From a virus: a DNA stretch of 29,683 bases. Below, piece after piece: positions 18,235 through 26,961 of the stretch. The notes under the pieces were generated by a model. That model made no database searches, was not told where the DNA came from, and worked only from the letters and a program-made list of their open reading frames with translations. The stretch's first letter is position 1. Every line of letters starts with the position of its first letter. Where the stretch lies: IMG/VR virus record IMGVR_UViG_3300001484_000215; one strand, written 5' to 3'. A program made the position numbers and the translations under genes.

Positions 18235-21200
18235 TTATCTTCGCATAGCTCTTTGAGCAGCTAAATTAACTAAATCACTAAGTGCTTCTTCAATTTCTCT
18301 TTTACTATTAACATTTGGGAATGAAGCATCTATATGAACATTTTGTTCAAGTTCTTCGCTATCTCCTAAATTGTTATAAGTACCAGATTTAATACCACTG
18401 GTTCTAGCAAATAAGTCTCCATTTAAAGAATCAGTAATGGATTTTAAAAGACTCATTGTATTGAATAAGTTTTCAGTATCGTCAGCATTTAATACTAATT
18501 CTTTTTTGTGTAATACAGCTAACTTGCCTCCATTACCACTCCAATCACCTGTATATCCACCAGTATCTAATCTAGCGAAAAGTTTTTCCCAATCAAGTAT
18601 GTCTTCAATATCTGAAGAATCGCCACCAGGAACTAAATTCCAAATATTGTCAGGAATATTAACAGTCTAACCATCATCAGTAGTATATTTTTTCGTACCA
18701 GTAACAATATGACCTTGTCTTTCTAATTCATCAAACCATTCAGAAGAAAAATCTTCTATCTGTTTGATTTCTTCTTCCTCAGCAAAAGGATGAGTATATA
18801 AAGTCTTTCCTTTTAAATAATCTTCTGAAACGTATCCAGGAGTATCATCTAATATTGTATTTTGATTTGAATTATACTAACCTGATTCTTTTAGTTTTTG
18901 GAAATCAAATACAGTAGGATATTTTTTACCAGTAATCTGTTCTGCATAAGTTTCATTATCATCATCTTCATTATCGTAATCTCTATCATCAAAAACATCT
19001 GACTTATTTTCTTGCATCGCCTCATGAATTACAGAAACTGCATCTTTAGCTGCATTATAAACTCCATTATATTCTTCCATTAAAGCATGGGCGGCATTTT
19101 TTAATTGTTCAACAGCCGTTAATTCATTACCCATTGTAGTAATTAAATCTTCATTTTTAGTAATTAAATCACCAAAAGAAATAGCTAAATCATCAACTCC
19201 GCCTTTAACATTTTGAAGATCTATGCCAGCAACATTAGCCATCTCATCTAATTGATTTTGATAATCTAACGTAGCTTGATTAATATCTTCAAAGGCTCCT
19301 TGACAGACTGGAATAAATCCACCCTATCCAGCAACCCTGTCAGTCATCTGCTGAATACCGCTTTCCCAAGTAGGAACTAATTCATTCATTAAAATGTTTT
19401 GTTCATCTGTAGACATCTGTTTATAATTATCAACATCTGTCCGATATAATGCAGCAATATCTGCAAAAGCAGATTCTTGTAGATTATTTCTAATAACTAG
19501 ATTTTCCGCGGTTTTATTATTAATATATTGTCCATATTGCTCTCTTAATAAAGCACTATTAGCAACTCTCTAATCCTCTGATAAAGAACTGTCAGTCATA
19601 ATATCTTTATATTGTTCTTGAAAATCTTTCCATGCTCCAAGAATATCTTCTAAATTAGAATTATATCTGTCTTTATCAAAATTATAAAGGTCATTTTGAG
19701 CGGTAGCCAGTCCCTATTCAGCTTCAGAAATATTACTTTCATCTGCGACATATTCATATGAATAATTACCTTGAGCATCTCTCTTTAATCTCATAGAAGT
19801 TTTACTTGCTTGAGCATCTTCTAAAGCTATTCTTGCTTGCTCAATTTGTAATAACTTCTCGGCTCTTTGAACATCATATTCTGTTAATTTTTCTTTTGCT
19901 TTAAGGTTATTTAACTACTGATCCATTAATTTCTTTAAGGCTTGCTGATTTTTTAAGACTTTTGTATCATCAATAGCTTTTTGGAATTTATTTTCTAAAT
20001 CTTGAACAGCAAAAGCAGAATTAATAGTATCTAAATATTCATCTGCATTTTTCTTCATTAAATCCCAACTAGTTTCTAAATAATTGGTTCCTAATCCACC
20101 GCTAATTTTTTTATCTAAGTCATCAAAAATACTATCAATTGCGTTAATATATTTATTTCTTAAATTCTCAGCTGATTCTTCTATTAATGAATTTAAATTA
20201 CCAATAGTTTCTTTATAATGTTCTTCAAATTGTTTTGCGGCTTCTGAATCTCCACGAGCAACCGCCGCATCCCATTGTTCTTTCCAGAAATCTCTTTGAC
20301 GTTTTAATGAATCTAATTGTTTTAAGTTATTATTATGCAATGTTGTGTAATATTTATCCATTGCTTCATAATTTTTATCACCATACAATAAAGATAGCAA
20401 ATCAATGTCATGTTCAATTAAATCACCAATTAATCCATAATTATCAATTTGTTTATCAAATTGTTCTGAAATATCATCAATTGTATCAAGATAAGCCTGG
20501 TCAATATTATCAATTAAACTTTCAATATCTTGCATTTGTTGCATCAACTCATCAAGATCATTTTGTAAATCTTCCATAGCACGTTTTTTATCAGTGCCAT
20601 AAATAGAAGATTCACCGCCAGAATTAATTTCATCTAATTCTTCTTGGGTTGCCAATAATTGATTAGTTAATGCTTCTATACTTCCCTGACCATTTACATC
20701 AAAATAAGATAATACATCAGCATATCCTTGTTCAATATCTTTAAACATTTTATCAAAATTAGACTCTTTTAAAATATTAGAATGATTAAGAACATTTCTT
20801 TCAAATTCATTCCATTTTCTTTCAGCCTAACCCATATTTAAAGATACTTCGATTTCAATTCTAAAATCTTCAATCTTTTTCTAGATTTGTTTATAAGCAT
20901 ATTCTTCTTGTTGTTCTAAACTATCGGTAAATCTATCCTATAAAGTAACATATCTTTGTACTAACTATGTTAATTCTTCTAATCTTTCTTTTTCTTTCTA
21001 ATACTATTCTTTGAAAGCATCTTGCTAATCTTTTGTCATAGCATCATGCTTCTAATTTAATTGTTTACGCTTTTCTTCAATTTTAAGAATTAAATCTTCA
21101 TAATTAGTAATTTCATTAGTATTAGGATCAAATATAGCACCCTATAATTCTAATACTTTTTTAAGTTCCTCTTGTTCTTTTTTAATTATTTCTTGTTTTT

Positions 21201-24200: not shown

Positions 24201-26961
24201 CTACAGCATTAATTTCTTCTTGAGAAGCCCCTGCTAATGCTAAAGTCATCATTTTTTCTTGTAAAATTGCAGCTTGGTTAGCGTTCCTTGCTGCAGTTTC
24301 TGCCTAAATAGCCGCAGTTTTTGCTACTTTTGCAGCAGTTTCTGCCTGTTCTCTTGCAACAGCAATAGCAGAATTTGCATTATAACTAATTATAATTTTA
24401 TCTAATGTTTGATAGGCTCTAATAATAGAAGATAAAGTAAAACCTAAATTAATAATAGTTTGTAATAACTTTTCATCAAGAGATAAATCTTGATTTTTCC
24501 AAATACTACCTAGATTTTGAATTTGTTGAATCGCAATGCCAATACTAGTGAGACTTCCCGCAATTTTAGTATAATTTTCAATATCAACACCTCTTTGAGT
24601 TCTCTCAATGCCAATATCAAATTGATTAGAATCAGCTTGCATTTTTCGTTTCATCTAATCAACTAAAGTAGATATATCTGCAGCAGTAGATTGAAAATTA
24701 TCTTTTAATTTTTCTCCCATTTGAGCAGCAGCATCACCAGCATTTTTTGTCATACCCTATAACATACTAGAAATACTTAATAATGAAGTTCTTAATTCAT
24801 TATCTGGTAAATTATTTGGTAATTCTTTTAATGCTTGAGATAATTTATTTACTTGCTAAACATGACGCTACATCTTTCCTTGTTCTGCTAGCTATTTTAC
24901 TTTATCCATATAAGTATTTAAACTAGCTTTCATAGTCTACAAATCAGATGTAATCTATTGTCCATTAACAGCTTTATTTCCTAATTCTTTTAAATCATTT
25001 TTATATTTATCTAAAGCTTCAGATAATTCTTTAAAAGCTAACTATTGTTTAGCAATTCTATCAAGAACAATGGCTTGAGAATCTGTATCTCTCATAACAG
25101 AATTAAGCCCTTCCCATTTATCTGTTGCTTTTGTTACAGATTGAACTATTCCATTTAATATTTCCTATTGAGTTGACAAACTCGCAAAAGCATTAGCTGT
25201 ATCTGTTAACTAATTAAGCATAGTTTGCATACCAGTAAATTGCTAAGGACTCATCATATTAGCTAATGAAAGCAATTGTTCTCTATTATTTAATAATTTC
25301 TAAGTAACTTCATCTAATCCAGGGATTCCCTGCCATTGTTGAGTAGTCTATAAAGCTTGTTCAAATTGTCTAGCATTGTCTTTAGCAATTTCAAAATTAG
25401 TAATAGTTGTATTAATTCCTTTTGCTATTTGTTGACTAAAAACATTTAATCCAACAGCACCTATCATTTTTAAAACAGATACACCACCGCCAAGACTATC
25501 AACTAAATTAGCAGTTAAATTTGCGGCAATCGCAAGTCCATCAGCTATGCTGTTAATACTGTTAATACTATCTGTATCAGCTAAACTATCATATATATTT
25601 TCAACAGCAGCTTTTAATGTTTGTAAATGTGCAGCAATTGATTCCATATATATATCTTGTTGCTCTTGTAATGTACCAGCTGCATTTCTAGCAGTATCTA
25701 AAGCTTCATTATATTTTTCAAAATTATCAAATAAAGCAATTAAGTTAGAATACTGTCTTTGACCAGCCATTGTTTGTGCAAGAGAAATCTGTTGTTCTCT
25801 AGTTAAATCTTGCCAACGATTCCCAATATCTTCCATAACTTCGCCCATATCACGAAGATTACCAGCAGCATCAAGAACATTAAATCCTAATTCCGCCATT
25901 TTTCCTGAATAATTACCAAGAGTAACGCCATCTTCATCAATCCCTGCTTTAATATCAGAAATACGCGCATATACAGTTCTTAATGCAGTACCTACTGATT
26001 CTGGGGCTTGACGAGTAACAGATATAATAGTTGCTAATTGTGCAGCTAACTGATCTTCACCAACTCCCATCGCGGCAGCCGCACTTGCTACTTTACTCAT
26101 ACCAGTACTTAATTCCTCAAGGTCTGATGCAGTTGTAGCAGCAACCGCAGCAAGTCTATCAATATAAACTTCTGCTTCTTTTGCATTTACTTTATAACCG
26201 TTCCAAACGGCAGTTAATTCCTCCGAAACATCTGATGCAGATTGACCAGTAACATTTGCTGTCATTAAAGTTATTCTTGCTCTTTCTTCAATTTCTTTAT
26301 CAGAAAGACCCTGTTGAGCATAAATTAATGCAGCATTGGTATAATCTGTTGTAGTTTTTCCTAAACCTTGAGCTGCCTCATTTGCTTTTATAGCAAAATT
26401 CCCCATTTCTTCAGCAGATTTACCAGTAACAATACGGATATTATTCAAAGAAGTATCTAATGCTTTTGTATAGCCCCAAGCTTGTTCTACTGCACGAGAC
26501 ATACTATTTATAGCACCAGAAGCAATATTCCACTTAACAGTATTGGTAAGTGTCTTTGCCATTTTATCTAATAAATTATGTGTTTCTTTTAATTGGATAT
26601 TTGTATTTAAAACTTGAGATGATAAACTTCTAAATGCATTTTCACCACTTGTTCCCGCAGAACTAAAAGCTTTATAAACCTATTGTATAGTGGTACCAGA
26701 GCTTTTTAAAGATTTATTAAAACTCTATATATTTACAGTATTTAATTTAGCATTAAAAGCACTTTTTAGAGCATTTTCTACATTTATAGCCTATGTTTTT
26801 ATTTTATTCAACATAGTAGTAGCAGTTATTGCATTAGTATCATTTATTTTCATTACATCACTTATTTTTAACTTTTGAAGCTATTGTAATGAAGATTTTA
26901 ATTTACTCAAGTCGCCTTGCTTTACATCAAAGCCAACTTGATATCTAATCTCATTTGCCAT
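18235..26961 (-). CDS. Giant tail tape measure protein, ~2908 aa, with dozens of in-frame TAG sense codons.
   Basis: RBS AAAAGGAGACAAAAGG upstream of ATG 26959-26961. ORFs 25348..26562, 24304..24654, 21292..21687, 19915..20748, 18877..19242 and 18235..18456 all share one frame. Spot reading of the junctions at 26563-26961, 25300-25350, 24121-24306, 19243-19440 and 18457-18720 shows only CTA (TAG) between them. The N-terminal region matches TMP core sequence (…NVTGQSASDVSEELTAVWNGYKV…). The body is Ala/Gln-rich coiled coil. The stop is TAA at 18235-18237. Confidence 0.85.

Follow-up and report, generated by a model that had tools for sequence, protein, structure and literature searches.

An uninterrupted tape measure protein gene, apparently displaced from its usual partner genes, in a phage clade that probably reads the amber codon as glutamate

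The tape measure protein (TMP) of a phage tail is a long helical chain which occupies the tube of the tail while it is assembled and determines how long the tube becomes. The window analyzed here, a whole stretch of 29,683 nucleotides from a virus (IMG/VR record IMGVR_UViG_3300001484_000215), carries a candidate gene of this kind at 18235–26961 on the minus strand, and can be compared with several described groups of phages. The first is phAss-1 and its relatives, the proposed Phassvirus (OQ749652, BK046881, BK025033; Babkin et al. 2023, PMC10607447), which come from gut samples, have genomes of ~133–136 kb, belong to the same wide lineage as Enterococcus phage EF1, encode TMPs of 3,149–3,209 amino acids (aa) and, like the window, contain in-frame TAG codons in late genes. 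The second comprises Enterococcus phages VRE9_4, EF1, EF5 and H1 (phrog_34405), with genomes of 134–142 kb, the standard code and a 2,673-aa TMP. A third point of reference is Bacillus phage vB_BanS-Tsamsa (169 kb genome, standard code), whose 3,123-aa TMP runs as bands of 280 and 100 kDa and whose tail was measured at 440 nm (PMC3903500).

By its gene content, the window belongs to a low-GC (~29%) phage of ~130–140 kb from the wide lineage of phAss-1 and Enterococcus phage EF1/VRE9, with which it shares the TMP, the downstream tail protein and baseplate proteins. Contigs of its relatives are 130–144 kb long, and in one of them (3300021400_001206, 139,781 bp) the end pattern is repeated near the start. 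Our reading of the locus, to which we assign a probability of about 0.85, is that it holds an intact TMP gene in a relocated unit, with TAG read as glutamate. The gene and its recognizable parts are as follows.

18235–26961, minus strand: tape measure protein gene, 2,908 sense codons plus TAA, 62 TAG (most likely Glu), from translation, profiles and relatives.
25351–26679, minus strand: conserved N-terminal region, aa 95–537, TAG-free and common to all TMP families in PHROGs; the query for 40 IMG/VR relatives.
25762–26382, minus strand: PhageMin_Tail (PF10145) domain, aa 194–400, from Pfam.
24001–24084, minus strand: the sole strongly hydrophobic, membrane-span-like segment, aa 960–987 (KAMLKFIATIAPFAIAIAAIGGAIAIYD), from composition.
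21367–21714, minus strand: Gly/Pro-rich basic non-helical linker, aa ~1750–1865 (contains GGKKGGGGKGGGGK), from composition.
18361–18516, minus strand: C-terminal TMP motif, aa 2816–2867 (GGYTGDWSGNGGKLAVLHKKELVLNADDTENL), from phrog_12717 and the alignment to the Enterococcus phage TMP, which extends up to aa 2902.

Translation of 2,909 codons from the ATG at 26961 to the TAA at 18235–18237 showed that the 2,908 sense codons include 62 in-frame TAG, no TGA and no internal TAA. The two other frames of the same stretch contain 276 and 416 stop codons, 164 and 372 of which are TAA or TGA, indicating that the open TMP frame did not arise by chance; with ~9% TAA/TGA per codon, arithmetic on the frame counts places the chance of 2,908 codons without either far below 1e-100. 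The nearest in-frame TAA upstream is at 27031–27033 and the first ATG is that at 26961. It is preceded by AAGGAGACAAAAGGAT, and the consensus among 11 relatives, AAGGAGATAAAAGGATATG, is almost invariant; such a conserved translation-initiation sequence supports the start. In the whole window, the DNA in open reading frames (ORFs) of at least 100 codons increases from 20.8 kb to 34.2 kb once TAG is taken as sense. All 17 complete genes called in the window terminate in TAA and have no in-frame TGA, and the genes called there contain 135 in-frame TAG in total. The original prediction had described the frame as continuous between the same ATG and TAA, which holds with TAG as a sense codon; the parts that it had not read codon by codon (roughly 20749–21291, 21688–24120 and 24655–25300) contain neither TAA nor TGA.

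Scanning IMG/VR with the TAG-free N-terminal region yielded 40 loci (handles L001–L040; higher numbers denote further loci), ~25 of which have a complete gene with an ORF of 2,570–3,068 aa and 0 to 88 in-frame TAG. Four of them (L022, L026, L031 and L040) have no in-frame TAG in the TMP and encode the same protein uninterrupted. Since these TAG-free, standard-code relatives carry the whole TMP, continuity of the gene does not depend on any assumption about the code. It could be argued that the TAGs are real stops and that the region is a row of gene remnants or a degenerate pseudogene, given that table 11 splits the frame into 63 pieces and that the GenBank record of phAss-1 is annotated in a fragmented manner. 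We consider this explanation to have next to no chance of being correct: TAA and TGA are missing from this frame, as against 164 and 372 of them in the two others, TMP length and colinearity are kept in the ~25 relatives including the TAG-free ones, the N- and C-terminal TMP signatures sit at opposite ends of the ORF, and TAA terminates every complete gene of the window. The stretch 18235–26961 is thus almost certainly a single intact TMP gene.

Profile and sequence searches identified the product, by homology, as a phage tail tape measure protein, in agreement with the original prediction, which had named PhageMin_Tail among the families to look for. PhageMin_Tail (PF10145) was detected over the full profile (positions 1–201 of 201) with an E value of 1.7e-28 and 100.3 bits (cut-off 33.2). 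Twelve TMP families in PHROGs were matched, the best being phrog_34405 and phrog_4211 (E ~1e-62), whose profiles are 2,675 and 2,625 positions long, respectively. A tblastn search against 50,697 phage records revealed that aa 77–2902 are colinear with Enterococcus phages EF1, EF5, H1 and VRE9_1–4 at ~27% identity, and the matched stretch in VRE9_4 is annotated as a TMP gene of 8,022 nt (2,673 aa). The C-terminal motif GGYTGDW...LAVLHKKELVLN showed a weak match to phrog_12717 (E 0.006). The N- and C-terminal signatures together show that this one ORF spans a TMP from its beginning to its end. Proline accounts for 1.1% of residues, and there is one hydrophobic segment. A megablast search of the gene against the same 50,697 records gave no match, a PDB sequence search with the N- and C-termini returned only spurious designed-repeat or AdcA matches, and no catalytic or enzymatic domain was found in Pfam, PHROGs or the PDB sequence search beyond the TMP signatures. 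Tandem repeats as a source of the length were limited to trivial 2-copy arrays.

The TMP had originally been described as exceptionally long. It is typical of its lineage: its length lies within the range of the ~25 relatives (2,570–3,068 aa), TMPs of the phAss-1 group and of Tsamsa are longer, those of the Enterococcus phages are somewhat shorter, and Thermus phage P23-45 has a TMP of 5,002 aa (PMC10770324). Total length is tightly kept among relatives that are only 35–65% identical. A long, Pro-poor and mostly helical chain of this kind would fill the tail tube and set its length, and at 0.14–0.15 nm per residue (0.141 nm per aa in Tsamsa) the predicted tail is ~410–440 nm long. An alternative is that there is one gene here and not one ruler, the product being cleaved at the linker (aa ~1750–1865) or carrying a cargo or ejection domain, in which case the tail would be much shorter. 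The Gly/Pro-rich, basic segment, with its Gly and Lys residues in the middle of the protein, does break the helical composition, and the 280 and 100 kDa bands of Tsamsa TMP point in the same direction; the linker, which separates two helical halves, is a candidate for a hinge or for a site of processing. On the other hand, the searches of Pfam, PHROGs and PDB sequences returned TMP signatures and no other domain, conservation of length in spite of 35–65% identity is what selection on the whole length would produce, and the Tsamsa tail scales with the full 3,123 aa. We therefore regard a shortened ruler as rather unlikely and the full-length chain of ~320 kDa as the preferred ruler.

Several relatives have insertions of 0.4–1.5 kb in the TMP gene, at aa ~222, ~327 or ~400; the longer ones encode HNH_3+NUMOD or DUF723/DUF2726 ORFs. 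The window's TMP is without any such insertion. These are presumably self-splicing introns with homing endonucleases; no intron model of Rfam matched the interrupted genes at the gathering threshold.

L034 10706–11964; L039 7991–8403 and 8731–10000; L018 6321–7821; L033 10925–12102: insertions in the TMP gene of relatives.

In-frame TAG occurs in many genes of this phage, mainly late ones, with TAA kept as a stop, and early genes (MVP-like, that is, major-vault-protein-like, and those for gyrase, ligase and replication proteins) have almost none. It is this use of TAG as sense in late genes that makes the TMP gene translatable at all. To investigate its meaning, we analyzed which residue standard-code relatives have at the sites where TAG-using genomes have TAG, at first in 23 aligned full-length TMPs. 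In conserved columns, 53% of TAGs fell on Glu and 22% on Gln, as compared with 71% of ordinary Gln codons on Gln. Two groups of genomes were distinguished: L023 and L027 have TAG on invariant Gln, and the window's clade has it on invariant Glu. A second test used 12 ortholog groups with a consensus drawn from standard-code relatives only. In the window's clade, TAG occupied 12.3% of conserved-Glu cells (68 occurrences in 23 columns) versus 1.1% of conserved-Gln cells (4 columns), whereas in the sister clade, which serves as a positive control for the test, it occupied 15.0% of Gln cells (23 columns) versus 2.2% of Glu cells. In a third test, with more loci and 11 proteins excluding the TMP, all five testable TAGs of the window were on conserved Glu columns; the favored and disfavored percentages were 18.4% versus 0.3% in E-dominant loci and 39% versus 0.3% in Q-dominant loci, the grouping of loci being drawn from the same data, so that the independent parts are the 5/5 of the window and the bimodality. 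Lysine and aspartate were also considered as meanings of TAG and rejected, as TAG fills only 0.2–1.2% of conserved Lys/Asp cells.

A gene for a RuvC-like resolvase is particularly informative.

13348–13836, plus strand: RuvC-like resolvase, 7 TAG, one of them in an invariant EE motif (IIME-TAG-V); gene used for the codon-meaning test.

Standard-code relatives have IILEEV at this motif, the window has IIME-TAG-V and L057 has IVM-TAG-TAG-V. Among 48 sequences, the first column consists of 39 E and 9 TAG and nothing else, and the second of 38 E, 9 TAG and a single D. By alignment with E66 of E. coli RuvC, we take the first column to be the putative catalytic Glu. Neither column contains CAA or CAG, which should also appear if TAG meant Gln.

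Taken together, the column tests make glutamate the quite probable meaning of TAG in the window's clade. The original prediction had assumed translation with table 15; as TAG behaves here as Glu and not as Gln, this is probably the wrong table for the window. A reading of TAG as glutamine, with the signal on Glu columns coming from tolerated Glu-to-Gln replacements through GAG-to-TAG changes, appears unlikely. It would agree with the published TAG-recoded phages, including the related phAss-1 group, all of which use Gln, and Gln codons rank second among the partners of TAG in weakly conserved TMP columns. However, conserved-Glu columns of the clade contain GAR or TAG and hardly ever CAR, even though GAA could have changed to CAA just as directly; the putative catalytic Glu of RuvC is replaced by TAG in 9 genomes; the same pipeline yields Gln for the sister clade; and the tRNA(CUA) of the clade (described below) is without the U1/G73 signature of co-resident tRNA-Gln genes.

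The extent of recoding differs within the Glu-type clade. Members L005, L034 and L037 have few in-frame TAG (13–22 in ~8,000 codons), and L004 and L005, whose TMPs are 67% identical, have 36 and 5 TAG in this gene, respectively, which seems to reflect a gradient of recoding.

No tRNA was found by the tRNA scan in the window, in L001–L040 or in the scanned loci of L042–L118. Walking contig 3300021400_001206 by exact patterns revealed replication and repair genes only and no tRNA, and Rfam at the gathering threshold gave nothing in 129 kb of the clade. The tRNA arrays were reached via homologues of the 670-aa protein of the window: clade members that are colinear with the window have an array 6–10 kb upstream of the homologue, a position corresponding to just beyond the left end of the window. 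A tRNA with anticodon CUA is present in three clade members (L147, L150 and L171), always followed by tRNA-Met; the contigs of L133 and L134 break off within the array. The three are 76–84% identical. Each can be folded into a canonical cloverleaf, 7 of whose 20 pairs show compensatory changes, and all share C1-G72, G2.U71, A73, U11-A24, a non-Watson–Crick 13–22 pair and A46. U1-A72 together with G73 marks tRNA-Gln for GlnRS and GatCAB, and U1 and G73 are found in most of the phage tRNA-Gln(UUG) genes examined in the same arrays, and also in the second suppressor of phAss-1 (Sup2), in which 1–72 is a U.C mismatch. The tRNA(CUA) of the relatives do not have this tRNA-Gln character; their U11-A24, 13–22 and A46 features resemble the augmented D helix identity set of tRNA-Glu. 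The label of tRNA-Pyl given by ARAGORN was rejected on account of the canonical T loop, the 5-nt variable loop, the 5-bp anticodon stem and the position of TAG on Glu columns.

The reader of TAG would thus be a phage-encoded tRNA(CUA) from the array left of the region homologous to the window. In hosts without GlnRS, a non-discriminating GluRS would charge it, and the GatCAB amidotransferase, which needs U1-A72, would leave the product as Glu-tRNA; this route through GluRS and GatCAB is a guess. Under the model of Borges et al., full-length TMP would be made only once the suppressor is available.

Further genes were observed in and around the arrays. A tRNA with anticodon UUA, of the ochre-suppressor type, is located at 2215–2289 of L171, though all window genes examined end in TAA; it may be a pseudo-tRNA. 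A phage tmRNA (tag peptide ADNYTYQMAA) lies within the array of L147 (2730–3007). Beyond the MVP gene of L119 (220–3104), an RNA ligase (PHA02142 OB fold plus RNA_ligase), an AAA_33 kinase and a metallophosphoesterase stand side by side; the set looks like tRNA repair in a phage dependent on its own suppressor tRNA. Finally, a TAG-free protein of ~500 aa (DUF2828/DUF7788; L133 4399–5886, and L134, L143 and L147) is always found between the tRNA array and the baseplate block, a site immediately to the left of the window's homologous counterpart.

In standard-code relatives, and also in the TAG-to-Gln relatives L023 and L027, the TMP follows a co-directional structural module syntenic with that of VRE9_4 (phrog_4088, 3853, 29637, 6123, 4051, 2729, a ~450-aa protein and phrog_30570), and the canonical order in standard-code relatives is tube, 448-aa protein, chaperone-position protein and TMP. 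Pfam gave nothing useful for these three proteins in L022. Upstream of the TMP in the window's clade, we found instead MVP, RNA ligase with kinase and phosphoesterase, RNase H, GyrB, GyrA and NAD-dependent ligase, and further upstream ThyX, a DnaB-like helicase, primase, PolIII alpha and a probable NrdD (assigned by sequence reading); almost all of these genes are TAG-free. In the window itself, the TMP is not directly downstream of tube and chaperone genes, and its upstream neighbor is the divergent MVP-like gene, as the original prediction had noted in reporting no tail tube or chaperone gene upstream. It had also suggested a check for frameshift chaperone genes elsewhere, and a chaperone-position homologue was located beside NrdD/PolIII in clade member L131. 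This locus contains homologues of phrog_6123, 4051, 2729 (tube-like) and 30570 (chaperone position), which end at a convergent junction with the NrdD/PolIII block and are not followed by a TMP, indicating that the TMP has been relocated. On contig 3300021400_001206, the distance between the TMP and these tube and chaperone-position genes is ~45 kb by the shorter arc, as we estimate from locus coordinates. The TMP of this clade thus appears to have been translocated away from its usual partner genes. Distal-tail and baseplate genes still come after it, via the 1,297-aa partner described below.

Several observations weigh against parts of this overall reading. At poorly conserved TMP positions the partner codons of TAG are mixed (GAA 32, CAA 17, AAA 11), and the tally for the window from the TMP alone is 4 Glu to 3 Gln; insertion of Gln at TAG may be ambiguous or partial. 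One relative (L008/L061) does not fit a simple assignment of TAG to Glu: in the protein encoded after its TMP, TAG occurs at two invariant Asp positions and in one column each of Gln, Asn and Thr. The window is without a tRNA of its own, the suppressor being seen only in the three relatives, and the charging identity of tRNA(CUA) lies beyond what a sequence reveals. With regard to the whole 2,908 aa as ruler, the linker and the two Tsamsa bands count on this side, too. In addition, a promoter toward the TMP in the 260-nt spacer before it was detected only as a weak 9/12 match, with a match count at chance level.

The genes and signals on both sides of the TMP are listed below.

27222–29683, plus strand: major-vault-protein-like gene, 0 TAG in 820 codons, transcribed away from the TMP and running off the window; from the shoulder domain and alignment.
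26962–27221, no strand: divergent intergenic region of 260 nt with promoter-like sites, the TMP ribosome-binding site and a motif.
18208–18234, minus strand: intrinsic-terminator-like hairpin, 12-bp stem with 6 GC pairs and a T-rich tail, starting one base past the TMP stop; from the terminator scan.
18031–18192, minus strand: conserved small ORF of 53 aa (YKW..G.Y...DM..LV....I.K.EFF.ITRY.YDGV) in the gap from the TMP to the following gene; 11 of the 12 relatives inspected have it.
17987–18015, minus strand: promoter-like TTGAAA-17-TATAAT with TG (11/12) ahead of the 1,297-aa gene; consensus match only.
14058–17951, minus strand: 1,297-aa tail protein, 16 TAG, the next gene after the TMP and its conserved downstream partner.

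The MVP-like protein has a shoulder domain, and its residues 320–775 align with 329–811 of rat/human MVP (E 6e-14). An earlier report described phage MVPs in a related genome (bioRxiv 10.1101/2023.11.10.566534). In the intergenic region, two identical plus-strand sites (TTGATT-17-TATAAT with TG) are located 101 nt apart, at 27060–27088 and 27161–27189, and face the MVP-like gene. The TMP had been placed directly after a divergent promoter region; two strong sigma-70-like sites do exist in the spacer, but both of them face the other gene, and the 9/12 match is the only one directed at the TMP. A candidate late promoter is the motif TGGTCGGG..TAAAAT at ~27033–47 (TGGTCGRG..TAAAATAAT), which lies ~60–75 nt upstream of the TMP start and is common to four or five relatives of the same architecture.

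Four rows were returned by the terminator scan, all of them one palindrome read on both strands, versus 0.1 expected. A hairpin is found at the same site after the TMP in 19 of 20 relatives, with a different sequence each time. With its conserved ribosome-binding site and the hairpin after its stop, and with the following gene having a promoter-like site of its own, the TMP would form a transcription unit of its own, as we infer from these signals. The 53-aa ORF had no match in Pfam; it may resemble small tail proteins of the XkdX type. Every relative has the 1,297-aa partner after its TMP gene, and the homologue of this partner in VRE9_4 is a "tail protein". Elsewhere in the window, a block of six genes (10252–13149, minus strand), which is kept in all clade members, contains 3 TAG in ~950 codons within a TAG-rich late region and includes a BclA_C-like 154-aa protein and a Gly/Asn/Cys-rich 252-aa protein. 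An 838-aa tail-fibre-like protein (6266–8782, plus strand; phrog_5240) has a weak C-terminal match to GDSL/SGNH esterases, which suggests a receptor-modifying esterase. The 955-aa protein of the window, used alone as a query for related loci, found no relatives.

The TMP of the window adds one member to the known group of very long-tailed phages, and its separation from the chaperone-position gene illustrates that the near-universal adjacency of chaperone and TMP can be broken. The meaning of the codon matters more than the TMP itself. It is probable that a clade of ~130–140 kb phages, here represented by IMG/VR metagenome contigs only, has reassigned amber to glutamate, read by a dedicated C1-G72/A73 tRNA(CUA), and there is a similarly good chance that this stop-to-Glu code arose beside a sister clade with the usual TAG-to-Gln change. 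No published report of TAG-to-Glu in phages was found in the literature searched, the coverage of which was incomplete, so that this is absence of evidence only. If TAG is Glu, phage annotation pipelines, which offer only tables 4, 11 and 15, introduce ~135 wrong residues in the window, including those in active sites. A TAG-to-Glu clade beside a TAG-to-Gln sister is a natural experiment on the identity of suppressor tRNAs, and the pair bears on whether indirect aminoacylation of Glu/Gln opens both outcomes. A natural amber suppressor inserting Glu would also be of interest to genetic-code engineers.

Among the known systems, phAss-1 resembles the window in that its TMP also adjoins divergently transcribed genes, and an MVP homologue has been described in the related genome ctOa11 as well. 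However, the two TMPs share ~30% identity over the N-terminal 430 aa only, and TAG in phAss-1 is Gln, with Gln-like suppressor tRNAs beside NrdD, whereas in the window's clade it behaves like Glu, and the tRNA(CUA) differs in both type and location. The Enterococcus phages are colinear over aa 77–2902 and have a homologous downstream tail protein, but at 27% identity, with the standard code and with the TMP after structural and chaperone-position genes that are elsewhere in the window's clade. Tsamsa TMP is in the same size class as that of the window and provides the best available calibration of length; the likeness drawn here is one of size. The TMP of P23-45 is longer, making 2,900 aa no record, and its N-terminal part is a virion RNA polymerase (PMC10770324), whereas no such domain was detected in the window's TMP.

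With regard to the code, phages that use code 15 (crAss-like, Lak, Garnet/Topaz) have the recoded stop in late genes, avoid it in early genes and encode a phage tRNA(CUA), as observed here, and Borges et al. (bioRxiv 10.1101/2021.08.26.457843) report having seen TAG-to-Gln and TGA-to-Trp only in phages with a code unlike that of the host, and no other change. Their hosts and that of the window presumably both use the standard code. The code 15 phages read TAG as Gln, whereas in the window's clade it is most likely Glu. To our knowledge, the only established code with TAG as glutamate is the peritrich ciliate nuclear code (NCBI table 30, TAA/TAG = Glu). That code is eukaryotic and nuclear and has TAA reassigned too, whereas TAA is the only stop used in the window.

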